Position numbers and translations under genes: made by a program
NCBI GenBank assembly: GCA_964610505.1
Contig: CAZSXU010000024.1
Span: 91 to 64,090, forward strand
Direction: 5' to 3'
From: an uncultured bacterium
GTDB taxonomy: Bacteria > Arandabacterota > Arandabacteria > JAGLYR01
Length of the DNA: 64,000 nucleotides
Part shown: piece by piece, positions 10,270-64,000 of the stretch
How positions within the stretch are numbered: position 1 is the first letter of the stretch
Layout of the letters: every line of letters begins with the position of its first letter
Notes under the pieces: generated by a model
The model's input: the letters and a program-made list of their open reading frames with translations, nothing else
Databases searched by the model: none
Told to the model about the DNA's origin: nothing

Positions 10270-10397
10270 GGTAACCTCCCGATTTTCTCCCGGCTTTCTG
10301 TGGAAGAGCAACACGAGGACCTGTCCGGCATCCAACGGATCACGCGAAGGCCGGACGTCTCTCCATTTCGCCGATCAGCTCCTGGAAACTGCAATAC

Positions 10398-12552: not shown

Positions 12553-13614
12553 TCATTCGATCACACGAATTGTCCCGGCGGCTCCGTCCCGGATTTCGCC
12601 GATCCGGGCGACGGAATCGACCCCGGCGGAGGCCAGCCGTTCCGAGAGCACGGCGGCCTTCCCGGGAGGCGCTGAAATGAGCAACCCTCCGGAAGTTTGA
12701 GCGTCCGCCAGGAGGATGCGCGTGATCTCGTCCATCTTCGCCGGAAACTTGACGAAGGGCTCCAGAAACTCGAGGTTGTTCTTGCTTCCGCCCGGCACGG
12801 CGCCCTGGGACGCGTACTTGAGGGCCGAGGGGAGGATCGGAACGTCCGGGGCGGTAACGAGGGCCGACACTCCGGAGGCTGCGAGCATTTCGTGGAGGTG
12901 GCCGAGGAGGCCGAATCCCGTGACGTCCGTGCAGGCGTTGACGCCGACCTCGGACATCACCTCGGAGGCGGATCGGTTGAGCGCCGCCATGAGAGTCGTG
13001 ATCTCATCAATCTCGTCGGGGTTCGCCAGATCGCGCTTGATCGCCGTGGTGACGATTCCCGAACCCAGCGGTTTGGTCAGGAACAGGCGGTCGCCGGGGC
13101 GGGCGCCGGCGTTGGTGATAACGCGCTCGGGGTGAACCAGGCCCGTCACGGCCATCCCGTACTTGATCTCATCGTCCTTGACGGTGTGTCCACCGACGAT
13201 GCTCACGCGGGCCTCGACGGCCTTGTCCAACCCTCCCTGGAGAATCCGGACCAGGATTTCCAGGGGAAGTTTGTTCTCGGGGAAACCGATGACGTTGAGT
13301 GCGGTCACCGGCCGCCCGCCCATGGCGTAGACGTCGCTCAACGCGTTGGCCGCAGCCACATGGCCGAAAGCGTAGGGGTCGTCGACCATGGCCGTGAAGA
13401 AATCCACCGTCTGAACGAGGGCCAGATCGTCACGCAAGCGATACACGCCGGCGTCGTCCGCCGTGTTGGACCCGACCAGTACGTTGGGGTCCGGCGGAAT
13501 GTTCAACTGCTTCAGAGCCTGTTCCAAGCCCTCCGGGCTCAGCTTGCACGCTCAGCCCGCGCCGCTCGTGGTCTGGGTGAGCCGGAAGGGTTTGTCGTTC
13601 GAGGGCTTTCTCAT
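12553..13614 (-). CDS. selD: Selenide, water dikinase SelD (selenophosphate synthetase), selenoprotein with in-frame UGA (Sec) at 13552-13554
   Basis: The track ORF (12553..13527) starts at TTG inside the gene. Reading the same frame upstream through TGA (plus tca 13552-54) gives [58 protein letters not shown], which aligns with E. coli SelD [30 protein letters not shown]...DPNLLVGNETRDDAAVY with Sec at the Cys17 position. ATG is at 13614. The rest of the protein is typical SelD (AIR-synthase-like: [17 protein letters not shown]...[10 protein letters not shown]). Confidence 0.9.
13520..13551 (-). promoter_or_regulatory. Putative bacterial SECIS hairpin immediately 3' of the selD UGA
   Basis: The mRNA reads UGA GCG UGC AAG CUG AGC CCG GAG GGC UUG G. 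CAAGCUGAGCCC-GGA-GGGCUUGG folds into a ~8-bp stem (including G-U pairs) with a small G-rich apical loop starting ~6 nt after UGA. Confidence 0.5.
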
Positions 13615-20131: not shown

Positions 20132-20577
20132 AGAAACCCTCCCCCAAAAAGTAAATGCACGGGCCGGCGGCCTATGCGTCGGGCGTACGTCGATTCCAAA
20201 CTCTCGAAAGAATACGCCTATCCGCCGCGGCCGTCAAGCGCTTCCTCGAAGGAGGGATGTCGAATCGGGTGATTTTCCCCGCGGCGCGGGTTCCGCCCCA
20301 CCGACCTGCCGGCATCGTCCAACATACGCAAGCGGCCCCGTCGCTGCGGGATTCGTCGAATGCATTGTCAGGAAATGAAATTGACGGCTCCGGCGCAGGC
20401 TGCGTTCGGGGAACGGTTCTTGCATTGCTCCGGGAGGGGTGGAGATGAACAGGTCGATCCGGCCGGTGCCACCCAGGAGCGAACCCGATGACAATCCATC
20501 CCGGCACGTTCTTCGTAGATCAGCCGTTCGCACACCCCGGTCCGTATCGCCCCTGCGGATCGGGGTGTGTCGCTCGG

Positions 20578-38200: not shown

Positions 38201-39670
38201 ACCGACTACTGGGTGGTTCAGGTCTCGGATGACGGTTGGACCACGTGGGCCACGCTGGAGAACACCAACGTGACGAACCGCAGTTGGCTCATGATGCAGT
38301 TTGACGTCGGCGGCTACGTGGATCTGACGGGCACCGTTCAGTTCCGCTTCATCGCCAGCGATGAAGATCCGGGATCGCTTGTGGAAGCGGGCGTGGACGA
38401 CTTCCTGTTGATGGGGTGTCCAGATCTCACCGATGTGGAACCCCCGACGGTGACCGTCGTGGATCCCAACGGCGGGGAGGCGCTGACGGGCGGCCAACCG
38501 TACGATATCGAGTGGACGTCATCGGACAACGTCGGTGTCGTCTCGACGACCATCCTTCTCTCGACCGACGGCGGCGGGTCGTATCCGACGATGGTTGCCT
38601 CGGGATCCCTGACGTCCCCCTACAGCTGGGACGTTCCGAACGAGGACCAGGCGAGCTGCCGGATCAAGGTAACGTGCGTGGATGCGGCGACGAACGAGGG
38701 AAGCGATGAGTCGGATGCGAATTTCGCCATCGTCTGGCAGGATTACGAGGCCCCCACCGTGACCGTCGTGGATCCCAACGGCGGCGAGGCGATTCAGGGT
38801 GGAGATCCGTACGACATCGAATGGACATCCTCGGACAACGTCGGTGTCGTCACGACCACGATTCTTCTCTCCACAAACGGTGGATCCACGTATCCGACGA
38901 CCATCGCGAGCGGCTCGCTTGCATCACCATATACCTGGGACGTGCCGGATGTGGATGAGCCGTCCTGCCGAATCCGCGTGGTGTGCGAGGACGCCGCAGC
39001 GAATCCGGGCAGCGACGATTCGGACGCGGATTTCTCCATCCTTCCCATCGATCACGAGCCTCCGACGGTGACCGTCCTCGATCCCAACGGGGGCGAGGAG
39101 ATCTTCGGCGCTGGTCCCTATACGATTCGCTGGACGTCGGATGACAACGTCGGCGTCACGCTGACGGCCGTTTTGCTCTCGGTGGACGGCGGTCTCACGT
39201 TCCCCGACACGCTTACCGCCGGGGGGCTGGACTCCGCTTGGGTGTGGGACGTACCGGATGTGGACGAGACGAGCTGCAGGGTCAAAGTCCTCTGCTGGGA
39301 CGCGGAATCGAACGAGGGGAGCGATGCATCGGACGGCGGTTTCACGGTGATCAGTACGGTGACGGCGGTGGCCATGCTGGAAGCGGCTCCGGCGGAACTG
39401 GTGCTTCGCCAGAACCGGCCGAATCCGTTCAACCCGGTGACGGAGATCGAGTTCGGTCTTCCCGAGACCGGGTCGGCACTTCTCGAGGTCTACAACGTGA
39501 ACGGTCGATTGATTACGACACTGGCGGATGGTGTGTTCAACGCCGGCTACCACCGAGTGGTCTGGAGAGGCACGGATGCATTCGGCGCCGAGGTCTCGAG
39601 CGGGATGTATTTCTACCGGCTCGTGACGGAAGAGAAGGTGTTGACGAAGAAGATGTTGATGCTCAAGTAG
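35228..39670 (+). CDS. Giant secreted multidomain peptidase: C25 (gingipain-like) catalytic domain, FN3/Ig-like domains, shared jelly-roll domain, 3 x ~102-aa Ig-like repeats, Por_Secre_tail/FlgD-Ig-like sorting domain
   Basis: Signal MRCATILSIVLVGLLCLGVVPAAAS. C25 blocks are VYVLLGGDDDVVPARIAWDD...DLYYSDTDGSWN...GDVYVGRAPVNTSSEATNFVDQILMYE, ITNHCGHCNYNV (His) and YYTIGCWAAAFDYD (Cys). VVFEDDFETDKGWTVGDAGDDATTGIWDRCDPEWTEAQPEDDHTPD... is shared with the M28 protein. Three TVTV(V/L)DPNGGE...IEWTSSDNVGVV...C(R)I(K/R)V repeats follow. The C-terminus is RQNRPNPFNPVTEIEFGLPETGSALLEVYNVNGRLITTL...GMYFYRL...KKMLMLK. Confidence 0.9.
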   Translation: MRCATILSIVLVGLLCLGVVPAAASEMTHTVIFDPDRMSIESREGFDVVRVGECRFELVAGKPMIPVRTIHFSIPAGMVATALEIRSLEQIELDADLYLHPSQPPVRLSDKTTRQFIGPDPVVYESAEPYPGSVAKLMTNGHMGGYAVVGVQVYPVEYRPAQRKVYLNRRIELALILGPAEEPAGIITGRTEAGERAVMDRVRALVVNPEQVAEHIGPRPKGDRQSIVEYAIITGSSYVDEFQPLADWKTKKGVPTEIFTTDWIYANYTGTDNQEEIRNFIKDYEATEGLVYVLLGGDDDVVPARIAWDDLGYDGIRADLYYSDTDGSWNWDGDGYWGEHPADDVDMYGDVYVGRAPVNTSSEATNFVDQILMYEASSAGATLPTDFQEDMLFMAEILWDDPDPYTNGGIAKDMIDTGYVPSRFDPITKLYEADGNLNYTSAMNAMNDGPGITNHCGHCNYNVMSIGPSALYNSDMDALTNGSRQGIYYTIGCWAAAFDYDNIAEHYVNNTGGGGVAFVGNSRYGWGCPGYPGECVSDLYDQEFFRALFTDDLYNLGITHADARDYYVPDSQSDAYMRYGLYELNVLGCPEMPIWTRTPQTLAVSHPSTLPMGSSYFTVQVNTAKAAIVGATVCLMKDDEVYEVDVTDGSGQVTFEPTPATGGTMTVTVTMHDYLPYEGEATVEVGTPPSAPTGLAAVGGDGQVTLSWNTNPEPDIDYYIIYRATTPAPAGSLTTVMSPGYLDTDVVNDTTYHYRLRAVDTEGDKSGYSNEANATPQKPPVIFITHTPLTDTDDSNNPYPVVATITATETSLDPDSLLVMYETQTRVWESVVMTGTGTPDEYRGDIPAQPCGTLVDYYILAVDMNSNRETHPDLAPASTHSFAVNFTVVFEDDFETDKGWTVGDAGDDATTGIWDRCDPEWTEAQPEDDHTPDSGVRAYITDCDAGTSQGSYDVDGGKTTVLSPVFDLLDYASASVRYYRWYSNDTGSEPGTDYWVVQVSDDGWTTWATLENTNVTNRSWLMMQFDVGGYVDLTGTVQFRFIASDEDPGSLVEAGVDDFLLMGCPDLTDVEPPTVTVVDPNGGEALTGGQPYDIEWTSSDNVGVVSTTILLSTDGGGSYPTMVASGSLTSPYSWDVPNEDQASCRIKVTCVDAATNEGSDESDANFAIVWQDYEAPTVTVVDPNGGEAIQGGDPYDIEWTSSDNVGVVTTTILLSTNGGSTYPTTIASGSLASPYTWDVPDVDEPSCRIRVVCEDAAANPGSDDSDADFSILPIDHEPPTVTVLDPNGGEEIFGAGPYTIRWTSDDNVGVTLTAVLLSVDGGLTFPDTLTAGGLDSAWVWDVPDVDETSCRVKVLCWDAESNEGSDASDGGFTVISTVTAVAMLEAAPAELVLRQNRPNPFNPVTEIEFGLPETGSALLEVYNVNGRLITTLADGVFNAGYHRVVWRGTDAFGAEVSSGMYFYRLVTEEKVLTKKMLMLK
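38441..39362 (+). repeat. Intragenic tandem repeats, 3 x ~306 bp (~80% nt identity), encoding the three Ig-like modules of the giant C25 protein
   Basis: Repeat starts are at ~38444, ~38753 and ~39059. The opening of each unit (gaccgtcgtggatcccaacggcgg...) is nearly identical. Confidence 0.7.
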
Positions 39671-50038: not shown

Positions 50039-50599
50039 ATGAGTTTTCGTTACGAGGTACGCTTGAGCGGCGCCGGAGGTCAGGGACTCTTGTTGATCGG
50101 AAAAGTCCTGGCCGAAGCCGCGGCCGTTTACGATGGGAAAAACGCGACGCAGTCACAGTCGTACGGCCCCGAAGCCCGTGGGGGCGCCAGCAAGAGCGAA
50201 GTCATCATCAGCGACGAAGAGATCGACTACCCCAAGGCGACGGAGATCGATTTCCTTCTGGCCCTGACTCAGGAATCCTGCGACAAGTACTCGGGTGACC
50301 TCAAGCCCGGCGGTATCTTGTTGGTGGACACAACGTTCGTCAGCCGGGTTCCGGAAGGCCAGTTCAAGATCTACCAAGCCCCCATCACTCAGAAAGCCAA
50401 GGACGTTCTCGGGAGCGCGACGGTGGCCAATGTGGTCGCTCTCGGAATGATTTCGGCATTGACCTCGGTCGTCACTTCGGAATCCATCGAATCCGCCATC
50501 CTGGCAAGGGTTCCAAAGGGGACCGAGGATCTGAACACGAAGGCGTTTCAGCTGGGAAGGACGCTCGTCGAGGAAGCCAGCGCGGGTCAAGCGTCATGA
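50039..50599 (+). CDS. 2-oxoacid:ferredoxin oxidoreductase gamma subunit (copy 1)
   Basis: MSFRYEVRLSGAGGQGLLLIGKVLAEAAAVYDGKNATQSQSYGPEARGGASKSEVIISDEEIDYP... is the canonical POR/KOR gamma fold. The track ORF 49607..50599 carries an unsupported N-terminal extension. Confidence 0.9.
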   Translation: MSFRYEVRLSGAGGQGLLLIGKVLAEAAAVYDGKNATQSQSYGPEARGGASKSEVIISDEEIDYPKATEIDFLLALTQESCDKYSGDLKPGGILLVDTTFVSRVPEGQFKIYQAPITQKAKDVLGSATVANVVALGMISALTSVVTSESIESAILARVPKGTEDLNTKAFQLGRTLVEEASAGQAS

Positions 50600-50654
50600 G
50601 GGTTTGCAGGCGGTAGCTTGGGCCGGCGCACGTGTCGAAGATGGAGGCTCAAGA

Positions 50655-50948
50655 ATGAAGTTCTGGAGAACCCCCCTAGATCAAGATCGCCTCAAGGTTC
50701 CCCACGGGGAAGTCCACATCATCAAGGACCGCTGCAAAGGATGTGGGTTCTGTGTAGAGTATTGCCCCCGGGGGGCTCTTGAAATGTCGGACGAGTTCAA
50801 CGTCAAAGGCTACCACCCCCCCCGAGTCACCGAAGAATCTCTCTGCGTGAATTGCAACCTCTGCGAAATGCTCTGTCCCGAATTCGCGATTTTCTGTGTG
50901 CTCAAGGATGAACCGGAATCCGGGGAGGTGAAGCAAGTTGAAGGCTGA
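50655..50948 (+). CDS. 2-oxoacid:ferredoxin oxidoreductase delta subunit (2x[4Fe-4S] ferredoxin)
   Basis: CKGCGFCVEYCP and CVNCNLCEMLCP motifs. ATG 50655 is preceded by GGAGG. Confidence 0.9.
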   Translation: MKFWRTPLDQDRLKVPHGEVHIIKDRCKGCGFCVEYCPRGALEMSDEFNVKGYHPPRVTEESLCVNCNLCEMLCPEFAIFCVLKDEPESGEVKQVEG

Positions 50949-52095
50949 TCCGAAGGGCGTCCTCACGGGCGCACACTACATCGACGGCAACTATGCGATT
51001 GCAGAAGGAGCGCTCGCGGCCGGGTGCCGTTTCTTTGGCGGATATCCCATTACCCCTTCCACCGAGATTGCGGAGCGGTTCGTTCAGCGAGCTCCTTTGG
51101 TGGGTGGCGTCTTCATACAGATGGAAGATGAGATGGCGTCCATGAATGCGGTTCTGGGCGCGTCGTGGGGCGGTGTGAAGTCCATGACCTGCACCTCGGG
51201 ACCGGGGTTCTCCCTCATGATGGAGAATTTCGGATTGGGTCTGATGCTGGAGACTCCCTGCGTTCTGGTGAACGTTCAGCGGGGCGGACCATCGACCGGT
51301 CTTCCCACCCTCCCCGGCCAGGGCGACATGATGCAGGCGCGGTGGGGGTCCCACGGAGACTATGAGGTCATCGCCCTGGCGCCCGATTCGCCGCAGGAAG
51401 GGTTCGAACTGGCCATCGACGCCTTCAATCTCTCCGAGACGTACCGGATGCCCGTTCTGATGATGACCGATGAGTGCGTGGGACACATGACGGAGAAGGT
51501 CGTGATCCCTCCCGCGGAGGAAATCGACGTCGAGCCGCGGCGGTACACCAAGAAGCCGCCCGCGGAGTTTCTGCCCTATGCCGTGGGCGACGATCTGGTG
51601 CCGGACGCTCCCCCGCCCGGGAAGGGTTACCGATTCCACGTGACGGGCCTCACGCACGACGAGCGCGGCTATCCGGTGATCAATGCCGAAGCTCAAGACA
51701 AGCTGGTCCGGCGACTGGTGGACAAGGTTAAGAAGAACGCTAAGGATATTATCCGTTTCGAGGAGATGGATACCGACGGAGCGGACGTCGTGGTGGTGTC
51801 CTACGGGATCACGTCCCGCGTGGTGCAACCGGCCATCGAAAAAGCGAAGAAGAAGGGAATCAAAGTCGGCCAGATCCGCCTGATCGTGGTCTGGCCCTTC
51901 CCGGAAGAGAAGATTCGGGAGCTGGCCGGCAGGGTCAAGACCCTCGTCGTTCCCGAGCTCAACCTGGGACAGGTTGTCCTCGAGGTGGAGCGGTTGAGCG
52001 CCGGCAAGTGTGGAGTGACCCCCGTGACCCACGCCGGCGGGGGCGTGCACGATCCGGAGGCCATCTTCCAGGCGATCAAGGAGGGCGTCAAATGA
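50938..52095 (+). CDS. 2-oxoacid:ferredoxin oxidoreductase alpha subunit
   Basis: The N-terminal alpha-subunit domain is …GNYAIAEGALAAGCRFFGGYPITPSTEIAERF...MEDEMASMNAVLGASWGGVKSMTCTSGPGFSLMMENFGL...NVQRGGPSTGLPT. The start is TTG with a GGGGAGGTG SD, overlapping the delta stop. Confidence 0.9.
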   Translation: MKADPKGVLTGAHYIDGNYAIAEGALAAGCRFFGGYPITPSTEIAERFVQRAPLVGGVFIQMEDEMASMNAVLGASWGGVKSMTCTSGPGFSLMMENFGLGLMLETPCVLVNVQRGGPSTGLPTLPGQGDMMQARWGSHGDYEVIALAPDSPQEGFELAIDAFNLSETYRMPVLMMTDECVGHMTEKVVIPPAEEIDVEPRRYTKKPPAEFLPYAVGDDLVPDAPPPGKGYRFHVTGLTHDERGYPVINAEAQDKLVRRLVDKVKKNAKDIIRFEEMDTDGADVVVVSYGITSRVVQPAIEKAKKKGIKVGQIRLIVVWPFPEEKIRELAGRVKTLVVPELNLGQVVLEVERLSAGKCGVTPVTHAGGGVHDPEAIFQAIKEGVK

Positions 52096-52961
52096 AAGTG
52101 GATGCGCCGGTGAGAGAACACCCGATGGAAGGCCTTCTCAGGATGGACCGGATTCCGCACATCTGGTGCCCGACCTGTGGAATCGGAACGGCGCTGACCG
52201 CGTTTGCGAGCGCTCTGGAGGAACAGGAGGTCTCCCCGGATTCGGTCTCCATCGTTTCGGGCATCGGTTGTACGGGGCGGGTGGCAGGCTACACCAAGCT
52301 CGATTCCTATCACACGACACACGGTCGGGGGATTCCGTTTGCCGTGGGACTCCATCTGGCCAACCCATCTCTGAAGGTCGTGGTTTTCAGCGGCGACGGA
52401 GACCTGGTAGGGATCGGCGGGAATCACTTCATTCACGCCGCCCGGCGGAACGTGGATATCACCGTGGTCTGCGTCAACAACTTCCTCTACGCCATGACGG
52501 GAGGGCAGGTGGCCGCGACGAGTCCCGTCACGGCAAATACATCCACCTCTCCCTACGGCAATTTCGAGCAGCCTTTCAGCCTGCCCCTCTTGGCGCAATC
52601 TTGCGGCGCCGTGTACGTGGCCCGGTGGACGGCTCTTCACATCCGGCGGATGACCAAGGCGTTTGGTGAGGCGCTCCAGAAGAAGGGGTTTTCCTTTGTG
52701 GAGGTCATCGCTCCCTGCTCGACGCTCTACGCCAGACGCAACAAGCTGGGCACGGGGCTCGACCTGATGAAATTCTATCACGACAACAGCGAAATCCGGC
52801 ACGGGGCCGATCCCAACGACCTGGACATCGGGTTTCAGCAGAAAATCGTCTGCGGCAAATTCGTGGATATTGAGAAGCCGACTTTCCTCGACGCGATGAA
52901 CGACGGATACCGCCGCGCATTCGGGGACAGGTACGAAGAATACGGAGGAGCCCATGCCTAA
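52092..52961 (+). CDS. 2-oxoacid:ferredoxin oxidoreductase beta subunit (TPP-binding)
   Basis: WCPTCGIGTALTAFA...GIGCTGRVAGY...VVFSGDGDLVGIGGNHFIHAARRNVDITVVCVNNFLYAMTGGQ is the TPP/GDG motif. ATG 52092 overlaps the alpha stop (ATGA) and has an AGGAGG SD. Confidence 0.9.
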   Translation: MKVDAPVREHPMEGLLRMDRIPHIWCPTCGIGTALTAFASALEEQEVSPDSVSIVSGIGCTGRVAGYTKLDSYHTTHGRGIPFAVGLHLANPSLKVVVFSGDGDLVGIGGNHFIHAARRNVDITVVCVNNFLYAMTGGQVAATSPVTANTSTSPYGNFEQPFSLPLLAQSCGAVYVARWTALHIRRMTKAFGEALQKKGFSFVEVIAPCSTLYARRNKLGTGLDLMKFYHDNSEIRHGADPNDLDIGFQQKIVCGKFVDIEKPTFLDAMNDGYRRAFGDRYEEYGGAHA

Positions 52962-53523
52962 GACAACCGAGATTCGGGTGAGCGGTTTCGGCGGGCAAGG
53001 CGTCATCATGCTGGGCCACATCATCGGGAAGGGAGCCTCGATTTTCGATGGGCGGTTTGCGACGATGACTCAGAGCTTCGGCCCGGAAGCACGCGGGTCG
53101 GCCTGCAGTTCCCAGGTCATCGTTTCGGACGATCGAATCCTGTACCCGTATTTGAGGACGGCGGACGTCTTGATCGCCATGTCGCAGGAGGCGTACGACA
53201 AGTTCCTGCCCGGGCTGGGCGCCAAAGGGACGCTTCTCGTCGATGAGGATCTGGTGAAGATGGGAAAGACCCCGGACGGGATCAAGGTGCACAGGGTCCC
53301 GGCCACCCGATTCGCCGAGGAACTCGGCCGGAGAATTGTCCTCAACATCGTGATGACGGGCTTCTTCACCGCTATTACCGGCGTGGTGAAGCCGGAGTCG
53401 ATGCGGGAAGCCGTGAAGACGTCGGTGCCCAAAGGCACCGAGAACCTGAACCTCCAGGCGTTCGACAAGGGGTTTGAGTACGGGCGCGAGCAGGTAGAGG
53501 GACATGCTGCAAGCAAGCGATGA
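52954..53523 (+). CDS. 2-oxoacid:ferredoxin oxidoreductase gamma subunit (copy 2, paralogue)
   Basis: [65 protein letters not shown]... is ~35% identical to copy 1. It overlaps the beta stop and the hdrA start. Confidence 0.85.
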
Positions 53524-56500
53524 CGGCGATCGCGAATACTCCGGTGGAGACGTCCCTGAGGCGGAAGGACCTCTCGTCGAGGAGACCCTCGGTGAGACCG
53601 CCGAAGAGCCCGCGTCCGAAGAACCCCGGGCGGCCCTGGTCGTCGGAGGCGGGATTGCGGGTATCCAGGCGGCCATCGATCTGGCCGACTCCAATCTCCA
53701 GGTGTACCTGGTGGAACGGTCTCCGAGCCTGGGTGGACGCATGGCCCAGCTCGACAAGACCTTCCCGACGATGGACTGCTCCATCTGAATTCTCGGTCCT
53801 CGAATGATGGATGCCGGTCGGCATCCCAACATCAAGGTTCTGACCTACTCGGAAGTCACGGGTCTCACGGGCGAGGCCGGAAACTTCACGGCCACGGTGC
53901 GGCGTCACCCCCGCTTCGTCAGAGAAGATCTTTGCACGGGGTGCGGCCAGTGTGTGGAGAAGTGTCCCGTGGTCGTCCCCAACGAGTTCGACGAGGGACT
54001 GGGCGCGCGAAAAGCCATCTACTCGCCCTTCGCCCAGGCCGTTCCCAACGTCTACGTCATCGATCGCGAACATTGCCTGAACAGCGACTTCCTGGTTTGT
54101 GAGAACTGCAGCAGATCCTGCGAGAGAGACGCGATCGACTACGACATGAAGCCCGAGGATCTCGACCTCCGGATCGGGGCCGTGGTGGTCGCTACGGGTT
54201 TTGATCTGTTTGATGCCCGCGCGATGAAGAACTACGGCTACGGTCTCTATCCCAACGTGCTGACCTCCCTTGAGCTCGAACGGATGCTGAACGCATCGGG
54301 CCCCACCCGGGGACACATCTTTCGGCCCACGGATCGGAAAGTCCCGCGATCGATCGTCTTTGTCCAGTGCGTGGGAGCCCGGGGAGAGGCGGGCCAGCAG
54401 TACTGCTCACAGTTCTGCTGCATGAACTCGGTCAAGGACTGCATGCTGGTCAAACAGCACGCGCCCGAGATCGAGCGGCTCGAGATTCTCTACACCGACG
54501 TGAGAGCCGCCGGAAAGGGGTTCGAGGAGCTCTACATCCGATCGCTCTCGCAGCCCGAAGTGTCCTATACGCGGGGCCGGCCCTCGAGGATCGAAGAAGA
54601 TCCCGACACGCAGGACCTCATCGTTCACGTGGAAGATACGAAAACGGGAAAGATCGAGAACGTTCGGGCCGAGATGGTTGTCCTCTCCTCGGCCGCCATT
54701 GCGGGGGCGAGGAATCGAAAGCTGGCCGAGGGCCTGGGAATCGATCTGGATCACCACGGGTACTTCCTGTCTCGGGAGGCGGAGGGAGAGTTGTTGGAGA
54801 CGACCCGTTCGGGCGTCTATCTGTGCGGGTGTGCCGGCGGCCCGAAGGACATCTCGGACTCGGTGGCCCAGGCCTCGGGAGCGGCCGCACGGGCGGAGGC
54901 TCACCTCGCGAATTGCCGGAGGCCTACGGAGAAGACGGAGGTCGAACCCCTGGATCTCTCGGGGCCTCCCCGGGTCGGCGTATTCCTTTGCCACTGCGGG
55001 ATCAACATCGCGGGGGTTCTGGATATTTCGACGTTGGGGGAGTCGGCCCGCGCCCTCCCGCACGTGGTCCATGTCGAGGAGAATCTGTTTCTCTGTTCGG
55101 ACACGGGACAGCGGGCGGTGCAGGAGGCCATTCGGGAGCACAAACTGAATCGTGTGGTGGCGGCGGCGTGCACGCCGCGAACGCACGAGCCGATCTTCCG
55201 CCAGAGCTGCCTGGAAATGGGCCTTAACCCTTATCTTTTCGAGATGGTCAATGTGCGGGACCAGTGTTCCTGGGTTCACACCCAGGAGCCGGCCCTGGCC
55301 ACCGAGAAGTCATTGGACCTTCTCCGGATGGCGGTGGCCCGGGCCGTCCGGCTGGAGCCTCTGGAGGCCCAGGAGATTTCGGTCGAACAATCCGCCATCG
55401 TGATCGGTGGGGGAATCGCCGGGATGCAGGCGGCCCTCGACCTGGACCGGCAGGGATTTCCGGTTACTCTCATTGAACAGGGAGACGCCCTGGGCGGGCG
55501 GCTGCTCGAAATCCACCGTCTCTATCCTGATTTCCGCGAGACACGCGTGCTCCTGGACGCCAAACGCCGAGACGTGGAGGCGAGCCATGTCGTGGTTCAG
55601 ACCGGAACCGAGGTGCGGTCGATCGGGGGCTTCGTAGGAAACTTCGAGGTGACGACGGATCACGGTACCCTCAAGACGGGCGCGATCATCCTGGCGATCG
55701 GTTCGGACCTCTACCGGCCCAAGGGGGAGTACGGCTTTGGCACGTACCCGAACGTGATTACGGGGCTGGATCTGGAGAGGCTGTTCTCCTCCTCGGGTGA
55801 GACCCTCATGCAAGACGGACGAGAGATCAAAACGGCGGCGTTCATCCAGTGCGTGGGATCTCGAGATCCCGAGGGACGCATCAGCTGCTCCCGTTACTGC
55901 TGCCCCACGACGGTGAAGCAGGCGATCGAGATGAGAGACCTCGGTGTGGAGGCGGTTGTTTTCTACCGCGACATGCGAACGGTGTCCCAGGGAACCGAGG
56001 AGCTGTACCGTCTGGCCCGGCAGAAAGGCGTACGTTTCATTCCCTACACGCCCGAGTATCGGCCGCGCGTTTCCGGGAACGAGGTCGCCCAGTCCGTAAA
56101 GGTGTTCCACGACATGCTCGGGGACGACGTCGAGGTCGACGTGGACCTCGTCGTGCTGGCCACGGCCATGGTGCCCCGCGAGAAAGAGACGGCCGATCTC
56201 CAGATGCTCCTGAAAGTGCCTCGCGGGACCGACGGCTTCTTCATGGAGCGGCACGCGAAGCTGGGACCCGTGGAGACGGTGGTGGAAGGGGTCTTTGTCT
56301 GCGGAACGGTCCAGGGGCCGAAGGACATCGCCGAATCCATCGCGCAGGCATCGGCGGCCGCGGCCAAGGCCGCCGCCCTGATCTGTCGCGAACGAATCGA
56401 GCTGGAACCCACGACGGCGGTCGTGGATACGGCCCTCTGCAGAGCCTGTGGCCGGTGCGTGGAGATTTGCGATTTCCATGCGCCGGAGATCCAAGATCTG

Positions 56501-56659
56501 CCGACCGGGCTTCGGGCCGCCGTGATCAACCAGGCCCTGTGCAAAGGATGCGGCACCTGTGCTTCGTTGTGCCCGACCGGAGCCATTGCGGCCCGGCACT
56601 TCACCGACGAGCAGATCTTCGCCATGATCGAATCGTTGCTCCTGGGAGAGGTGGTGTAG
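53504..56659 (+). CDS. hdrA: Heterodisulfide reductase subunit A-like flavoprotein, selenoprotein (in-frame UGA at 53786-53788), double-module ~1051 aa
   Basis: Track ORFs 53504..53788 and 53804..56659 are in the same frame, separated by TGA. Read-through gives ...[36 protein letters not shown], matching the conserved HdrA FAD-domain motif KTFPTxDC(S/A)xCIL(S/T)PKM(V)E(A)GRHPNI with Sec replacing the second Cys. Module 1 is GxGxxG FAD ([20 protein letters not shown]), Fd ([13 protein letters not shown]), and CVGAR...YCSQFCC. Module 2 is a Cys-rich N-domain ([14 protein letters not shown]...), a second FAD domain ([17 protein letters not shown]), CVGSRD...CSRYCC, and a C-terminal 2x[4Fe-4S] ([24 protein letters not shown]). 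Confidence 0.85.
53809..53826 (+). promoter_or_regulatory. SECIS-like hairpin GGAUGCC-GGUC-GGCAUCC downstream of the hdrA UGA
   Basis: A perfect 7-bp stem with a GGUC apical loop begins 21 nt after UGA. GGUC is also the apical loop of the E. coli fdhF SECIS (GGUUGCA-GGUC-UGCACC). Confidence 0.6.
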
Positions 56660-57160
56660 ATGGCCAGGAAGAAAACGCCCGGAGCGAAAACCCCCGCACG
56701 GGGCCGGAAGAAAGCGGTGGAATTCGTTCCCCGGATCATCGTTTTCGCGTGCAACTGGTGCAGCTATGCCGGGGCGGACAACGCCGGGGTCAACCGGATT
56801 CAATACTCCCCGCATTTCCGGGTCATCCGGACCATGTGTTCGGGACGCGTTCATCCCTCCTTCGTTCTGAGGGCCTTCGAACTGGGCGCGGACGGAGTTC
56901 TGGTCTCAGGATGCCACATCGGGGATTGTCACTACATCTTCGGAAATGAGAGGGCCATCGAGAACTTCGAGAAGACCAAGGCTTTGGTCAAGACCCTGGG
57001 TCTCGAAGAGGGCCGGATCCGGCTGGAGTGGGTTTCGGCCGCCGAGGGCCCTCGTTTCGGACAGGTCATCGATGAATTCGTCGATGCCGTTCGCAACCTG
57101 GGGCCCTCGCCGATCGGGAAGAATGGAGGGGCGGCCACGGGTGCTGAACCACGAAAGTGA
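56660..57160 (+). CDS. mvhD: MvhD-like (methyl-viologen-reducing hydrogenase delta subunit family / FlpD-like) [2Fe-2S] protein
   Basis: [18 protein letters not shown]...[39 protein letters not shown] is the hallmark MvhD motif. Confidence 0.85.
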   Translation: MARKKTPGAKTPARGRKKAVEFVPRIIVFACNWCSYAGADNAGVNRIQYSPHFRVIRTMCSGRVHPSFVLRAFELGADGVLVSGCHIGDCHYIFGNERAIENFEKTKALVKTLGLEEGRIRLEWVSAAEGPRFGQVIDEFVDAVRNLGPSPIGKNGGAATGAEPRK

Positions 57161-57198
57161 GCATCGTCGGGCCGGAATGTGAAACCCCTGAGCGCGGG

Positions 57199-58350
57199 AT
57201 GAGCAACGTGGAGATCTTCTGGAAGAGTATCAAGTCGAGCAGGGCCTACTCCTGTCTGGAGTGCGGCAAGTGTACGGCCTGCTGCCCGGTCTCCCGCTAC
57301 AACGGGGTGTTCTCGCCGCGCCGTGTGGTGGCCGAGACGATCGAGGGAGGTGGGGAGGGCCTGATCTCGAACGCCGCCCTTTGGGAATGTCTCACCTGTG
57401 GGATGTGTGAAGAACGCTGCCCGATGGACGTGCACTTCTCAGAGTTCATGAGGTCCCTCAGGACCGTCGCTCTGGATCGGGGATTCTCCTCGGTGCCGTC
57501 GCACGGAGGCGTGCTCCAGTCTCTGATGCGGATGATGGTGTCTCCCACGATGAAACAGGATCGGATGTGGTGGGTGACCGAGGATTTGGAGATCGAGTCG
57601 CGCGGGGAGATCCTCTACTTCGTCGGGTGTCTGCCCTATTTCGACGGTCTCTTCGCCCCGGATTTCAAGTTCAAACCTACGGACATCGCACAGGCGACGG
57701 TCCGGATTCTCAATGCGGCCGGAATCCAACCCGTGGTCGATCCCAACGAGCGGTGCTGCGGGCACGATCTCCTCTGGTCCGGAGACGAGAAGAACTTCAA
57801 GATGCTGGCAGAGCAGAACGTCGCAGCGATTCGGGAGACGGGGGCCTCGGTCGTGGTCACGGCCTGTGCGGAGTGCGCCTCGACGCTGAGAGACGTGTAT
57901 CCGGCATACGTCGGTGCCCCGGGCTTCGAAGTGAAACACCTGGCGGAACTGGTGACCGAGCGATCGGGGGACCTCTCCTTCAAGGAAGCCGCAGCAAGCG
58001 TGACCTTTCAGGATCCGTGTCGCTTGAGTCGGCATATGGGACTGAAGGACGCCCCCCGGCAGGCTTTGGACCTCGTGCCCGGTCTCACACGGGTGGAAAT
58101 GCTCCATTCCGGGTCGAACGCGATGTGCTGCGGTACCAGCGCCTGGATGAGCTGCGACCAGACATCCAAACGCATTCAGGGCGACCGGTTGGCGGAAGCC
58201 GAGGACACGGGGGCGGACACCCTGGTGACCGCGTGTCCCAAGTGTCAGATCCATTTCCGGTGTGCCCTTTCCGACGGACAGACGAGTGGACAACCCCAGA
58301 TGGATATCCAGGATCTGAGCGTTTTCCTGGCATCCTGCCTGCAGCGGTAG
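57199..58350 (+). CDS. hdrD: HdrD-like heterodisulfide reductase subunit (HdrC-type 2x[4Fe-4S] fused to HdrB-type tandem CCG domains)
   Basis: CLECGKCTACCPV and CLTCGMCEERCPM (HdrC part). The CCG domains are VGCLPYFDG...ERCCGHDLL and QDPCRL...MCCGTSAWMSC...ACPKCQIHFRC. ATG 57199 (MSNVEIFW) is preferred. The track start 57157 overlaps mvhD. Confidence 0.85.
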   Translation: MSNVEIFWKSIKSSRAYSCLECGKCTACCPVSRYNGVFSPRRVVAETIEGGGEGLISNAALWECLTCGMCEERCPMDVHFSEFMRSLRTVALDRGFSSVPSHGGVLQSLMRMMVSPTMKQDRMWWVTEDLEIESRGEILYFVGCLPYFDGLFAPDFKFKPTDIAQATVRILNAAGIQPVVDPNERCCGHDLLWSGDEKNFKMLAEQNVAAIRETGASVVVTACAECASTLRDVYPAYVGAPGFEVKHLAELVTERSGDLSFKEAAASVTFQDPCRLSRHMGLKDAPRQALDLVPGLTRVEMLHSGSNAMCCGTSAWMSCDQTSKRIQGDRLAEAEDTGADTLVTACPKCQIHFRCALSDGQTSGQPQMDIQDLSVFLASCLQR

Positions 58351-58371: not shown

Positions 58372-60873
58372 ATGTTCGAGACGGCAAAGACAGACGGGAT
58401 CAGGGTCGGCGTGTTCGTCTGCGATTGCGGACTGAATATCGCAGGCACCGTGGATACGGAGGCGGTGGCGGAATACTCCCAGACCCTGGACGACGTGGTC
58501 GCCGTGATCCGCAACAAGTATACCTGCGCCGACCCCGGGCAGAATGAGATCAAGAAGGCGATCGTCGAACACAACCTGAACCGTGTGGTCGTCGCCTCCT
58601 GCACGCCGAAGATCCACGAGCCGACGTTTCGAAACTGCGTGGCCGAGGCGGGACTCAATCCGTATCTCTTCGAGATGGCCAACATCCGGGAGCACGTGAG
58701 CTGGGTCCATCAAACCGAGAAGGAAGCCGCCACCCAGAAGGCAAAGGACATCGTCAGGTCCGCCGTGGCTCGGGCCCGGCTGCTGGAAGCCCAGACCGAG
58801 GCAGAGGTGAAGGTCACACAGGCGGCCCTGGTCATCGGTGGGGGGGTGGCGGGAATCCAGGCGGCGCTGGATCTGGCCGACTCCGGCCATACGGTCTACC
58901 TGGTGGAGAAAGAGCCGACGATCGGCGGAATTATGGCCGCCCTCGACAAAACCTATCCGACCATGGACTGCTCCATATGAATTCTCGGTCCGAAAATGAT
59001 GGATGCCGGTCGGCATCCCAGGATCCGGCTTCTGGCCAACAGCGAAGTCACCGACGTCAAGGGATACATCGGGAATTTCACGGTGACGATCAGGCGCAAG
59101 GCCCGCTACGTGGACGAGACCGAATGTACCGCTTGCTCGGAATGCGCCAAGGTCTGTCCGGTTGCGGTGCCGGATGAGTACCAGCAGGGATTCTCCTCAC
59201 GGAAGGCAATCTATATTCCTTTCCCTCAGTCTGTTCCGTCCTCCTACATCATCGACATGGAGAGCTGCCTCGGGAATAACCCCATCGCCTGCGGGAAATG
59301 CCTGGAAGCGTGTGACAAGGACTGCATCGACTTCGACGCCAAGGACGAGTTCATGGAGGTCGAAGTCGGGACCGTCATCGCCGCCACCGGGATGGATGTA
59401 TTCGACCCGTCCGGCCTGGATGAATACGGGTACGGCAAGTATGAGAACGTGATCACGAGCATGGAGTTCGAGCGGTTGATCTGCGCGGGAGGGCCCACGG
59501 AGGGACACTTCATCCGGCCGAGCGACCGGAAGCTGCCGATGAGAATCGGATTCGTCCAGTGCGTCGGCTCCCGGTCCGAGAGAGGGGGCGTCCCGTACTG
59601 CGGCAACATCTGCTGCATGAACACCATCAAGGATACCCTTCTGCTGGCGGATCACTACCCGGACGTGGAATCCACGGTGTTCTACATGGACATTCGAGCT
59701 TTCGGGAAGGGATTCGAAGAGCTCTACCGGCGAAGCAAGGAGGAAGGGGTCCGCTACATTCGAGGCCTTCCGGGGGAGATCCTGGAGGATCCCAAGACCC
59801 GGAACCTCCGCGTGCGGGTGGAGAACACCACGGCCGGACGCCTGGAAGAGCACGAGCTGGACATGGTGGTCCTCTCGGTGGGAGTGATTCCCCGTCACGA
59901 TTCTCCCGCCATTCGCCAGCTGCTGACCCTCTCGAAGACGGCGGACGGTTTTCTCATGGAATCGCACCCGAAGCTGAAGCCCGTGGATGCCCCGACCCGG
60001 GGTGTATTCTTCGCCGGTTGCGCCGAGTATCCCAAGGACGTCAAGGATAGCGTGACGCAGGCGTCCGCTTCCGCTGCCCGCGCGGAGATTCTGCTCAACC
60101 AGGGGAAGGTGACCATCGAGGCCATCACGTCGAGGATCGACGCCGAGAAGTGCATCTTCTGCGGCCGGTGCGCGAAAGTCTGTCCGTATAACGCCATCAC
60201 CCAGCCCGATCGGAAGAAGAAACTGTTGCCCATGGTGGTGGAGGCTGCGTGTGCCGGGTGTGGAACCTGTGCGGCCGAGTGCCCGACGGATGCCATTGCG
60301 ATGCGGCATTTCACGGACGAGCAGATCCTGGCTCAGATCGATGCCTATCTGGCGGAGAAACCGGAAGAGCAGATTGTCATCTTCGCGTGCAACTGGTGTT
60401 CGTACCCGGGTTCGGACCTGGCCGGGACCTCGAGAATTCAGTATCCGACGCACGGCCGAGTGATCCGCACGATGTGTTCGGGGCGCGTGGACGAGAAATT
60501 CGTTCTCCGCGCCTTTGAGCTGGGGGCGCCGCTGGTGCTCGTGTCGGGGTGTCATTTCTCCGATTGCCACTACATCAGCGCCGTGCAGTGGACGCAGGCG
60601 CGAATCGAGAAGCTCTGGGACAAGCTCGAAAAGCTGGGCATCCGCCCCGAAAGGCTCCAGCTGGAGTGGATCAGCGCGGCGCAGGGCCAGAGATGGGCCG
60701 AAACGATGAAGGCCCTGGAGGATCTGCGTGGGAAGGTGACGAGGGAGGAGATTCAGGAAACCCGGAAGATCCTGACGGATCTCCGGGCGAAAAAGGGTGC
60801 GGGAAAGACGAAAGCCAAGGCCAAGGCCAAAACCAAGGCGAAGGCCAAGGCTAAAACCGGCACGTCGGAGTGA
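58372..60873 (+). CDS. hdrA: HdrA-like flavoprotein fused to C-terminal MvhD domain, selenoprotein (in-frame UGA at 58978-58980), ~833 aa
   Basis: Track ORFs 58372..58980 and 58996..60873 share a frame across TGA: ...[36 protein letters not shown]. Domain order is Cys-rich N-domain ([14 protein letters not shown]), FAD ([20 protein letters not shown]) with Sec, Fd ([13 protein letters not shown]), CVGSR...YCGNICC, and 2x[4Fe-4S] ([24 protein letters not shown]), then MvhD ([18 protein letters not shown]...[39 protein letters not shown]). An AGGAGGTGA SD sits before ATG 58372. Confidence 0.85.
59001..59018 (+). promoter_or_regulatory. SECIS-like hairpin GGAUGCC-GGUC-GGCAUCC downstream of the second hdrA UGA
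   Basis: The nucleotide context is nearly identical to the first hdrA: ccatggactgctccat(a/c)tgaattctcggtcc...aatgatggatgccggtcggcatccca. Confidence 0.6.
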
Positions 60874-61190: not shown

Positions 61191-61290
61191 GTGCATGGAG
61201 GCAAGAACCGGCCTCCATGCAGCAGCTATTCCCTTCGTGCTCTTCGTGATTCCGACTTTGGGTTCCGGCCGTAGCGGTTGAGGGTCGCCG

Positions 61291-64000
61291 ATGGACGCGC
61301 TCGCCATCCTGAAAGACCGGGCCTCGATTCTGGGCAATCACAACCAGAAATACATCCGGACCATCGAGACGTTCGAAGACCGCCTCACGCGGCGGCTTGA
61401 GCTTCGAGGGGTTCGCGATAAGGTCCATCTCTATCGCGACGCACCGAATCCGGGTCCCGAGATGGACGCGATCGTCTCGGTGTCCGACGACGGACAGGAC
61501 GTTCTCGATTTCCTCGGTTGCTATTACGCCTTCCGCTTCCTGGGGATGAATCTGGGGTTGTTGGACGCCCTTCACCTGGATCTCCTCTCGGAAGACGATC
61601 GCCCTTCGGTCTTGTTCCGACAATTCATGAAACAGTCCGGGACGGAATTCCGGATGCTGACCACGCATTACATGCAAAGGCTTCTGGACCTTTTCGTCGG
61701 CCGGGGAGAGGTGCCGGAATTCGTGCTTCTGGGTACGGGAACCCGGGCGGATCAGGACGATATCGACGTGGGGGTCGTGGTGAGTGGAGAGGGCGACCGG
61801 GACTGCCTGGATCGCGCCATCGGGCGGCTCCGGACGGAAATGCTGCGCCGGGCCAGCTGCCTTCATTTCCATCTCTCCGAACACGTCGGAACTCGGGTGT
61901 ACTCGGCCACGATCGAGGAGTACCAAACCCTGCTGGCCAAACGGATCCACGATTTCGTTATCATTAGCGAGATGCTGGGCGCGGCGCACATCCTGGGCAG
62001 CCGCCGGTTGTTCGAGGTGTTTCAGAGGGACGTGACGGACCGGTACTACTACCGGTTCGGGGAGAACATCTATCACGAGGGATTTCTCCGCGGCATCGTA
62101 GGTGAAATCCGTGCACTGGTCGCGCATCCGGTGCAGCTGGAGTCCATCCACCCGAAGAACGATGGGCTGAGGATGATCAAGGGGCTCATCGCCGCGATGA
62201 AGACCATCTTCGGCGTGCAGAAGGTCAATGCCTGGGACATTCTCGATGACCTCAGGGTCCGGGACGCCGACAACGCCCAGATCTACGAACAGCTGGATGA
62301 GGCGCTGACCTTCCTGGAGATCTTCCGGCACATCTATCAGCTCCTGGTGGTGCAGGAAGAGGACATTCCCCTCAGAGATGAGAACATCCGGCAGAATCTC
62401 CAGGTTGTCGCTACCCGCATGGGATACCACGACGTGGGGATCGTAAAGGCCTGGAATCACCTGGTCATCCACTACAACGAACATGTGAAACTCGCCCGGG
62501 AGGCGGTGACCGCCCTCATGCCTGACTTGACCGCGCACCTGGGGGAGTTCTCGATCTTCAGCTCGATGGCCCAGACGGCCAACCTCTCGGACGTGGCTGA
62601 GAACGTGAAGCAGAACCTGGCGGTGGGCTTCATCTCCGAAGCGGCGTTCTTCGGCGGAACGCGTTATTGGGACGACGTTCTGACCCGCCTGGAGGAAGAG
62701 AGCGGCCGGGTCCTGGGCCGATTCGTGGCGGACATAGCGGTTCTTGACAAACGCGTGCGAACCCAGCTTCTTCGGCGCTACGCCACCTGCGCAGGGTTCG
62801 CGCCCTATTCCATCCTGCGACTCCTCGTCGTCGTCAAGAGATACCGGGGGCACCCGGAGTCGGGCGCGATCTTTGAGGAGCTCACCCGCTTCGTTCTCGA
62901 GGAACTGAAACCGAGAGCCAACACGCCCACCCGGTTCTGCATGCTGTTCTACCTCTACCCGGAAGTCATGAACGGTTTCCTGGATCTCTGCTCCGACGAG
63001 GACCGCCTCCGGGTGAGGGAGCTGGTCCAGGGCCCCATCCACAGCGAGGAGTTCGTCGGTGTCCGGGAGGCCCTTCTCTACCTCTGCGATCTTCATATTC
63101 AATCGAGCCGCGCCTTCAAGCGGCAGATCATGAGCGTGGTCAAACGCCATCCGACAGTGCTCCATCATCTCCACGATTTCGACCGGCTGTGGGGCATGGC
63201 CCGGGGGTACTTCGCGGAGAGCCAGAGGATGCCCCAATTCAGGCGGCGAAAGGAGCTGTTGGGCGATTATTACGATCTCTCCTACCTGACCGTGGCGCTG
63301 GAAACCCTGGAGGGGAAGCCGATCGAGGACATCAATGCCCGGTTCACGGAGTTCTCGGACAACTACGTTCAGGTCCTCTTTGACATCTGCAGGCAGGAGG
63401 TCGAGGAGGAGTCCGGAGAACCCGTGGCGACGCGTGATTTGCTGGCCGTCTACGCAGCGGGGGGGAACGCGAGGGAACAGGCCTTCGACGACGATTACGA
63501 CATGTTCTTCGTGCTCAATTCCACGGACGAGGATGTCCGGATGCACTGCAACCGAATCGCTGGCAAGATGAACAGCGAGATCGGCAAGAGAGGCATCCTG
63601 CCCCACTATCGTCTGGCGGACCACTTCGGTCACTACGTGACGCTGGCGTCCGAGATTGAAGAACTTCTGACCTCGGAGAGCGAGGACGTGTTTGTGGATC
63701 AGTCACAGATCCTCGGATCGAGAATGGTGGTGGGCAGCCGAAAATTCGCGGAAAACTTCGAAGAGCACGTGATCGGCCCCCTCATCTTCCGGGACTCTGA
63801 GCGGTACGCGAAGCACATGATCAAGGAAATCCGATCGCGGCACGGGGAAGAGTCCCCCGGCGCACCCTGCCTGGACGTCAAGGAGTGCGCGGGCGGGCTC
63901 CGAGACATCGAGATGATGCTCCTGGTTCTCAAGGCTCGGTACGGCGTCCGGATGCATCTGGGGGAGAAGTTCGTCGATCTCATGGTGGACATCGCCAAGG
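61291..64000 (+). CDS. GlnE-like bifunctional adenylyltransferase/adenylyl-removing enzyme homologue (two nucleotidyltransferase domains + GlnD/GlnE-type helical domains), 3' end outside window
   Basis: The frame is open from ATG 61291 (GAGGG SD 6 nt upstream) to the window end (~903 codons). It is absent from the track because there is no stop in the window. NTase motifs are FVLLGTGTRADQDDIDVGVVV and VYAAGGNAREQAFDDDYDMFFVL. A GlnE/GlnD-type CAGGLRDIEMMLLVLKARYG motif is also present. The 1478-aa antisense track ORF 59197..63633 is its shadow. Confidence 0.6.
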   Translation, partial: MDALAILKDRASILGNHNQKYIRTIETFEDRLTRRLELRGVRDKVHLYRDAPNPGPEMDAIVSVSDDGQDVLDFLGCYYAFRFLGMNLGLLDALHLDLLSEDDRPSVLFRQFMKQSGTEFRMLTTHYMQRLLDLFVGRGEVPEFVLLGTGTRADQDDIDVGVVVSGEGDRDCLDRAIGRLRTEMLRRASCLHFHLSEHVGTRVYSATIEEYQTLLAKRIHDFVIISEMLGAAHILGSRRLFEVFQRDVTDRYYYRFGENIYHEGFLRGIVGEIRALVAHPVQLESIHPKNDGLRMIKGLIAAMKTIFGVQKVNAWDILDDLRVRDADNAQIYEQLDEALTFLEIFRHIYQLLVVQEEDIPLRDENIRQNLQVVATRMGYHDVGIVKAWNHLVIHYNEHVKLAREAVTALMPDLTAHLGEFSIFSSMAQTANLSDVAENVKQNLAVGFISEAAFFGGTRYWDDVLTRLEEESGRVLGRFVADIAVLDKRVRTQLLRRYATCAGFAPYSILRLLVVVKRYRGHPESGAIFEELTRFVLEELKPRANTPTRFCMLFYLYPEVMNGFLDLCSDEDRLRVRELVQGPIHSEEFVGVREALLYLCDLHIQSSRAFKRQIMSVVKRHPTVLHHLHDFDRLWGMARGYFAESQRMPQFRRRKELLGDYYDLSYLTVALETLEGKPIEDINARFTEFSDNYVQVLFDICRQEVEEESGEPVATRDLLAVYAAGGNAREQAFDDDYDMFFVLNSTDEDVRMHCNRIAGKMNSEIGKRGILPHYRLADHFGHYVTLASEIEELLTSESEDVFVDQSQILGSRMVVGSRKFAENFEEHVIGPLIFRDSERYAKHMIKEIRSRHGEESPGAPCLDVKECAGGLRDIEMMLLVLKARYGVRMHLGEKFVDLMVDIAK

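Follow-up and report, generated by a model that had tools for sequence, protein, structure and literature searches.

A probable selenocysteine codon and its candidate SECIS hairpin within a fused double hdrA gene of an uncultured bacterium

Introduction

In 2006, HdrA was the fourth largest family of bacterial selenoproteins (Zhang et al. 2006, PMC1794560). Syntrophobacter fumaroxidans was found to carry seven HdrA selenoprotein copies, fusions of one hdrA to another were noted, and hdrA genes were seen to cluster with frhD/mvhD and glpC (PMC1794560). A 2026 review lists HdrA as a selenoprotein with the motif CxxU, where U is selenocysteine (Sec) (PMC13188914), and the Sec-containing family has been found in methanogens, Deltaproteobacteria/Desulfobacterota, and Clostridia (PMC1794560, PMC13188914). 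Here we describe hdrA-1, a fused double hdrA gene interrupted by an in-frame UGA codon, in a 64,000-nucleotide stretch of contig CAZSXU010000024.1 (assembly GCA_964610505.1) from an uncultured bacterium of the lineage Arandabacterota. We call this whole 64-kb stretch the window, and all coordinates are positions within it. Comparison with relatives makes it very probable that the UGA is a Sec codon and that a hairpin just downstream is its selenocysteine insertion sequence (SECIS).

The residue concerned lies close to the redox centers of the protein. Residue 197 of HdrA is located between the bifurcating flavin adenine dinucleotide (FAD) and the [4Fe-4S] cluster of the partner protomer's N-terminal domain, and published accounts make it either a ligand of this cluster or half of a redox relay between Cys and Sec (PMC9012536, PMC13518236). 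A 2026 study of Methanococcus maripaludis by electron cryomicroscopy (cryo-EM) places Sec197 between cluster and FAD, where it may form a selenylsulfide with a neighboring Cys, and its authors call the role of Sec197 unresolved (PMC13518236). Fused or tandem pairs of complementary HdrA proteins occur in anaerobic methanotrophic (ANME) archaea and in the Moorella MetFV-HdrABC-MvhD system. These have been read as single-chain heterodimers (Chadwick et al. 2022, PMC9012536) because Cys197 of one protomer ligates the cluster in the N-terminal domain of the other (PMC9012536).

Results

The gene hdrA-1 occupies 53504..56659 on the forward strand. Translation of this interval gave 1051 codons with a single internal TGA at 53786..53788 (residue 95), at the second position of the CxxU motif, here C-S-I-U. 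An original prediction, made by a model from the letters of the window and a list of its open reading frames (ORFs), had pointed out that ORFs 53504..53788 and 53804..56659 share a frame and are parted only by a TGA; the translation bears this out, with TGA 53786-53788 as the sole stop between them. Coding signal based on GC content at third codon positions (GC3) was as strong before the TGA as after it, tblastn alignments to relatives continued across it, and Pfam placed FAD/NAD Rossmann and 4Fe-4S domains in each half of the gene. The start codon is uncertain, 53504 being the first ATG, which overlaps the end of porG. Gene callers were also expected to split such a gene, and the public calls for the same contig do list two proteins, of 94 and 950 amino acids.

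A homologue search with the read-through N-terminal module of hdrA-1 returned 7985 homologues, many of them named HdrA. The claim that read-through restores a conserved HdrA motif held up in this search: in 111 of the best 120 of the 7985, the residue aligned with the UGA is Cys, within FPTxDCSxC-IL. Eight of the best 120 begin with M(M/L)DAGRHP or MD(A/V)GRHP, and the closest homologues (58-65% identity) are all among these eight, whose sequences identify them as gene calls shortened just 3' of where the TGA would be; the remaining one did not fit the search pattern. As the original prediction supposed, the UGA falls on a conserved Cys, which corresponds to Cys197 of the crystallised HdrA 5ODC_A. 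The register is carried by hdrA-2, a second hdrA gene in the window: Cys197 of 5ODC_A aligns with the TGA of hdrA-2, and module 1 of hdrA-1 aligns to hdrA-2 in the same register, with 50% identity over 441 residues (BLASTP). The gene thus has both features of the HdrA CxxU family, namely, homology over the FAD/thioredoxin-reductase domain and a UGA where DCxxC has its second Cys (Cys197).

The interrupted codon recurs widely. We scanned one genome per GTDB species with a DNA pattern for PT-x-DC-[SA]-x-TGA-I-L-x-P, a design under which all matches are Sec-type by construction. The 121 matches show a TGA in this codon at no fewer than 120 loci or species genomes, and all 121 translate as HdrA on both sides of it. 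Among the matches listed, the hosts were Desulfobacterota, Chloroflexota, Planctomycetota, Bacillota, Acidobacteriota, Gemmatimonadota, Zixibacteria, Krumholzibacteriota, Asgard archaea, and others, with cultured strains such as Desulfosarcina variabilis and Desulfospira joergensenii.

The candidate SECIS core is a hairpin at 53809..53826 on the forward strand, lying over the codons for (M)-D-A-G-R-H-P. Its parts are GGATGCC (53809-53815), GGTC (53816-53819), and GGCATCC (53820-53826), which in RNA give a perfect 7-bp stem capped by a 4-nt loop, GGAUGCC-GGUC-GGCAUCC. A perfect hairpin of this sequence had been reported 21 nt downstream, and the stem does start at the 21st nucleotide after the TGA, leaving 20 nt from UGA to stem and 27 nt from UGA to loop (A53788 to G53816). 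The calculated folding energy is -11.5 kcal/mol for the 18 nt alone and -19.5 kcal/mol in a 71-nt context, and the minimum free energy (MFE) fold suggests that a weaker lower stem could form below the hairpin at about 53793-53843. According to the rules for bacterial SECIS (bSECIS) elements, a loop of 3-9 nt tops an upper stem of 4-16 bp, the MFE is -7.5 kcal/mol or lower, a G stands among the first two loop positions (G[G|U]), and 16-37 nt separate UGA and loop (PMC13188914 Fig. 2A). The hdrA-1 hairpin agrees with four of these four rules, having a 4-nt loop on a 7-bp stem, an MFE of -11.5 kcal/mol, the loop sequence GGUC, and a spacing of 27 nt.

Comparison across the matches listed provided the sharpest evidence for this hairpin. 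Within 66 nt downstream of the TGA, at least six of the seven pairs formed in the hdrA-1 register in 67 of 121, and 63 of these 67 had the GGTC loop. Stem sequences varied among them: GGAUGCC/GGCAUCC occurred 16 times, GGAUGUC/GACAUCC 17 times, a G·U intermediate 6 times, and xGAGGCC/GGUCUCC 12 times, so that compensatory changes can be seen from GCC/GGC to GUC/GAC and from GAU/AUC to GAG/CUC. Other lineages have a hairpin of their own a few nucleotides away, for example, CUGGUCG-AGGU-CGGCCGG or, in Chloroflexota, GGUGUCC-GUU-GGACGCC. Because the hairpin sits in coding sequence, the encoded peptide could itself dictate the pairing, and codon choice was therefore tested in the 52 listed matches that encode D[AV]GRHP. 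Asp was written GAT in 51 of 52 (37% gene-wide), Gly was GGT in 52 of 52 (16%), His was CAT in 52 of 52 (36%), and the alternating residue was always GCC when Ala (26/26) and always GTC when Val (26/26).

As a control, a metagenome scan seeded on Cys-type proteins yielded 75 loci with TGC or TGT and 5 with TGA. When distinct D[AV]GRHP sequences were compared, those with TGA formed at least six pairs in 54 of 54 cases, all seven in 44 of 54, and carried the GGTC loop in 51 of 54; only two of the eight with a Cys codon (TGY) reached six pairs, and one of the eight had GGTC. The hairpin contrast is clearly tied to the TGA despite the kinship among the sequences, and the comparative evidence for the hairpin lies far beyond chance. 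One Cys-type locus, L187 (metagenome contig Ga0101944_10008857, codon TGT), keeps GATGCC-GGTC-GGCATC at the SECIS position, probably as what remains of a SECIS now that Sec has recently given way to Cys. Remnants of this kind were described in 2006 (Zhang et al. 2006, PMC1794560). Four Asgard Sec-type copies fold weakly (-5 to -7 kcal/mol), no better than synonymous resamples, which is expected if the archaeal SECIS lies in the 3' untranslated region rather than in the coding region.

Some members of the family depart from these patterns. A Sec-type HdrA on metagenome contig Ga0326728_10004037 (L157) has a different peptide after the UGA (IEGPRMVEVLRHP), and the RNA downstream folds very stably (-26.7 kcal/mol) into something other than the GGUC hairpin. 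A metagenome-assembled genome (MAG) labeled Bathyarchaeota (L005) has a bacterial-type coding-region hairpin, and a MAG labeled Bacteroidales (L048) has an Asgard-like HdrA sequence and no hairpin; these two contigs may be mis-binned, or they may reflect transfers across domains.

These data bear directly on the possibility that the TGA is a true stop, leaving hdrA-1 as a split gene or pseudogene made of a 94-amino-acid FAD-binding fragment and a separately initiated 950-amino-acid protein. Public gene callers yield just these two products, an ATG occurs five codons past the TGA, and TGA serves as an ordinary stop elsewhere in the window. A stop at this point would, however, break up both the Rossmann fold that binds FAD and the invariant DCSxC motif, and the split would have to hit this same codon in no fewer than 120 genomes as well as in a paralogue 5 kb away. 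The five codons between TGA and ATG encode a conserved ILGP(K/R), and selection acting at the RNA level on the downstream hairpin is linked to the TGA. We consider a true stop very improbable.

The paralogue hdrA-2 and the gene selD, neither of which figured in the original prediction, bring the number of window genes with a UGA at a Cys position to three. The Pfam and 5ODC matches of hdrA-2 (58372..60873, forward strand) describe a full-architecture HdrA with a C-terminal MvhD: the protein matched 5ODC_A over residues 11-659 (E=1.6e-244), and MvhD chains matched over residues 665-784. Its in-frame UGA, residue 203, is at 58978..58980 on the forward strand, and its putative SECIS core hairpin, at 59001..59018 on the same strand, is identical to that of hdrA-1 in sequence (GGAUGCC-GGUC-GGCAUCC) and spacing. 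In the public gene calls hdrA-2 is split into 202 and 625 amino acids. Its closest relative, at 75%, belongs to a Zixibacteria MAG.

The gene selD lies on the reverse strand at 12553..13614 and was identified as selenide, water dikinase by NCBIfam TIGR00476 (3.9e-109, above the cut-off). SelD is the selenium donor enzyme in Sec synthesis. The in-frame UGA of selD (13552..13554, reverse strand) would encode residue U21, which aligns with Cys17 of the Escherichia coli SelD 3U0O_A. A candidate SECIS, CUGAGCCC-GGA-GGGCUUGG, occupies 13524..13542 on the reverse strand, with an 8-bp stem, a loop 17 nt after the UGA, and an energy of -9.8 kcal/mol, all from a single sequence. A second Sec-type hdrA and a Sec-type selD on the same DNA support Sec decoding in the host organism. 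Other candidates in the window were rejected as Sec genes. The same-frame ORF junction at 12553, where the selD stop is followed by an NFACT gene, is an ordinary gene boundary, and the mvhD and GlpC-like genes, whose families can contain Sec, are both Cys forms with full domain coverage.

The selD gene also weighs on whether the UGA is recoded to something other than Sec, whether to Cys through a SelB-dependent tRNA(UCA) or by reassignment of UGA across the whole genome. SelB-dependent recoding of UGA to Cys has been proposed for a few bacteria. Such recoding would fit the Cys that homologues have at the aligned position, and selA, selB, and selC were not seen within the 64-kb window. Against it, selD itself has a UGA at the position of catalytic Cys17, which is sensible only in a Sec-decoding cell. 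Genome-wide reassignment is excluded because many complete, Pfam-covered genes end in TGA, such as the porA ORF (50932..52095) and mvhD (56660..57160). Sec197 of HdrA has been seen structurally in M. maripaludis (PMC13518236). Recoding to another amino acid strikes us as just as improbable as a true stop. That a TGC or TGT was turned into TGA in sequencing or assembly is the least likely explanation of all: a one-base change in metagenomic data would suffice, but the TGA-bearing 100-nt segments are identical in a JGI contig (3300017989 Ga0180432_10000488) and an ENA contig, ERZ27256770 k141_458568 (though possibly from the same reads), TGA stands at the Cys position in three different window genes, hairpin-specific rare codons accompany it, and the closest relatives likewise have TGA.

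Several observations count against a Sec codon served by a SECIS. The hairpin alone gave z = -1.45, with 15 of 200 dinucleotide shuffles folding equally well, and synonymous resampling with the gene's own codon usage reached a continuous stem of 7 bp or longer in 6.5% of trials (P=0.065); a further single-sequence P value from synonymous resampling was 0.083. The whole window had no relevant Rfam match at the gathering threshold, and a search of 53700-53900 at E<=10 returned only a chance microRNA match. The 120 loci are phylogenetically non-independent, so that fewer independent events took place than the codon counts suggest. ARAGORN detected no tRNA or tRNA-Sec in the 64-kb window, and, of selD, selA, and selB, Pfam and NCBIfam detected selD alone among about 40 large ORFs of the window; with selA, selB, and tRNA-Sec all missing from these 64 kb, Sec decoding by this genome is documented in part only. 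The longer ENA contig extends about 10 kb farther downstream, and no Sec genes were seen among its called products.

Differences from the E. coli fdhF element belong with these points. In fdhF-type SECIS elements, a bulged U in the upper stem is important, together with the GU of the apical loop. The fdhF SECIS sequence is present under fdhF in 5419 of 5426 E. coli genomes and folds with a GGUC apical loop. The likeness to fdhF put forward in the original prediction stands as far as this loop is concerned, each element being a coding-region stem-loop 3' of its UGA, with a 4-nt GGUC loop, under the same bSECIS model. It fails in spacing, the loop being 27 nt from the UGA here and 18 nt in fdhF, and in the stem, which in hdrA-1 is a perfect 7 bp without the bulged U of fdhF. 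Beyond the loop the two have no sequence similarity, and binding of SelB to the hdrA-1 hairpin is a prediction.

Because the single-sequence hairpin statistics are weak, the case for a Sec codon rests on comparison. Even there, whole-segment MFE against synonymous resampling carried a moderate aggregate signal (mean z=-0.99), and the register-specific pair and codon counts were far sharper. The reading frame is established, the UGA aligns with Cys197, the hairpin is conserved and covaries, and selD lies in cis; we are highly confident that TGA 53786-53788 would be read as Sec within one hdrA gene and that the downstream hairpin acts as its SECIS.

The genes around hdrA-1 appear to form one co-oriented cluster with those of a 2-oxoacid:ferredoxin oxidoreductase. 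The latter (gamma, delta-ferredoxin, alpha, beta, and a second gamma subunit) fill 50039..53523 on the forward strand, as recognized by Pfam POR, POR_N, PFOR_II, and TPP_enzyme_C and by the public calls. Directly 3' of the hdrA-1 stop codon begins an mvhD/flpD-like iron-sulfur subunit gene of the Cys form (56660..57160, forward strand; Pfam FlpD 5.5e-51, NCBIfam VhuD-like). It is followed at 57157..58350, on the same strand, by a gene for a fused HdrC/HdrB-like (GlpC/TfrB-like) protein, again a Cys form, with two CCG domains (Pfam 4.7e-32), Fer4, and a 4Fe-4S dicluster. This CCG protein scored below every NCBIfam cut-off for HdrB, HdrC, GlpC, and TfrB, with 25.7 bits against the HdrB cut-off of 345.15 and 60.3 against the HdrC cut-off of 160; its best sub-threshold match was TfrB.

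We found the order por-hdrA(double)-mvhD-CCG-hdrA::mvhD again in Phycisphaerae and Planctomycetaceae (Planctomycetota), in Holophagae, in Zixibacteria-like and other uncultured bacteria, and in unclassified MAGs, and the por-hdr order is conserved at seven of our numbered loci (L111, L016, L091, L097, L047, L012, and L015). The cluster is best read as a bacterial Hdr-like module for flavin-based bifurcation rather than as a demonstrated reductase of the heterodisulfide of coenzyme M and coenzyme B (CoM-S-S-CoB).

Downstream of hdrA-2, an ORF at 61282..63999 on the forward strand runs off the end of the window. It exceeds 906 amino acids here, reaches 1104 in the longer ENA contig, and has a weak match to GlnD-like nucleotidyltransferases. 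Past the window, divergently oriented genes for HdrB-like, HdrC-like, and thiamine pyrophosphate (TPP) enzyme proteins follow this ORF (L201). Elsewhere in the window are genes for type IX secretion system (T9SS) sortase-like (PorU) proteins, proteins with T9SS tails or FlgD_ig tails, and a CarboxypepD_reg TonB receptor, at 35228..39670 (+), 8008..10335 (-), 20488..22389 (+), and 1952..4486 (+). The T9SS- and TonB-type genes probably indicate a bacterial host of the FCB (Fibrobacteres-Chlorobi-Bacteroidetes) group, going by gene content.

Discussion

If the codon is read as proposed, hdrA-1 would be expressed by the Sec pathway known from bacteria. SelB, loaded with Sec-tRNA(Sec), would bind the GGUC-capped hairpin while the ribosome stands at the UGA, and Sec would be inserted there instead of termination. 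The product would be a 1051-residue fused double HdrA containing C-S-I-U, in which Sec takes the position of Cys197 of crystallised HdrA.

The two halves of this protein complement each other. Module 1 (approximately residues 29-468) has the FAD/thioredoxin-reductase domain with its inserted ferredoxin domain and the CxxU motif, but it lacks the N-terminal iron-sulfur domain. Module 2 (approximately residues 490-1046) has the N-terminal domain and neither Cys; a BLASTP comparison with hdrA-2 maps both modules. As each half supplies what the other is missing, module 1 probably provides the Sec for the module 2 cluster inside the same chain.

A family of selenoproteins known for about 20 years gains in hdrA-1 an ordinary further member, which the original prediction had observed and interpreted correctly. 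Its immediate value is for annotation. hdrA-1, hdrA-2, and selD are all split or truncated in public gene calls, and the closest database relatives of hdrA-1 are shortened in the same way, which implies that HdrA selenoproteins are under-counted in uncultured bacteria. The gene also offers a clean example of a coding-region SECIS that would fix the encoded peptide in codons and amino acids alike: where the UGA is present the peptide is D-A/V-G-R-H-P, whereas IEC(F/L)RHP stands in the majority of the closest Cys forms.

The question of biological interest is what Sec197 does beside the bifurcating flavin, and the sequence of hdrA-1 alone does not answer it. The only route to novelty is the por-linked, doubly Sec-containing Hdr cluster together with the role of Sec197, and we rate its chances as modest. 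One tentative and rather doubtful idea is that the por-hdr cluster encodes an undescribed flavin-based complex that bifurcates or confurcates electrons, which would link 2-oxoacid oxidation and ferredoxin to some disulfide or other acceptor, with two Sec197-type residues tuning the low-potential branch. Were this true, one Sec197 would sit in an HdrA heterodimer made of a single chain and its counterpart in a homodimer of HdrA::MvhD, providing a bacterial, MvhD-fused, and naturally asymmetric system in which the role of Sec197 could be addressed.

Set beside the known Sec-HdrA family, this locus has the same HdrA homology, the UGA at the second Cys of DCSxC, a putative coding-region SECIS just downstream, adjoining mvhD/frhD-like and GlpC-like genes, and an hdrA-hdrA fusion. 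It differs in that the host is uncultured, probably of the FCB group, and outside the lineages of the 2006 list. No frhA/frhG hydrogenase genes adjoin hdrA here; oxidoreductase genes precede it instead, and both MvhD and GlpC are Cys forms.

Compared to structurally described complexes, hdrA-2 shares with the HdrA of 5ODC its four domains (N-terminal iron-sulfur, thioredoxin-reductase/FAD, inserted ferredoxin, and C-terminal ferredoxin), and the predicted Sec at the residue-197 position is shared with the M. maripaludis super-assembly of Hdr, Vhu, and Fwd (PMC13518236). In contrast to HdrABC-MvhAGD (5ODC) and Hdr-Vhu-Fwd, hdrA-2 is fused to MvhD, and hdrA-1 consists of two complementary degenerate modules. 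A single GlpC/TfrB-like protein takes the place of the HdrB and HdrC partners of HdrABC-MvhAGD, and CoM-S-S-CoB is an unlikely substrate in a bacterium.

A close architectural parallel to hdrA-1 is the fused HdrA of ANME archaea and Moorella. In both, one module has the residue-197 equivalent but no N-terminal domain, implying a heterodimer formed within a single molecule. The two arrangements part in module order, which is reversed in hdrA-1 so that the CxxU module comes first, and in the residue itself, which at position 197 would be Sec rather than Cys.

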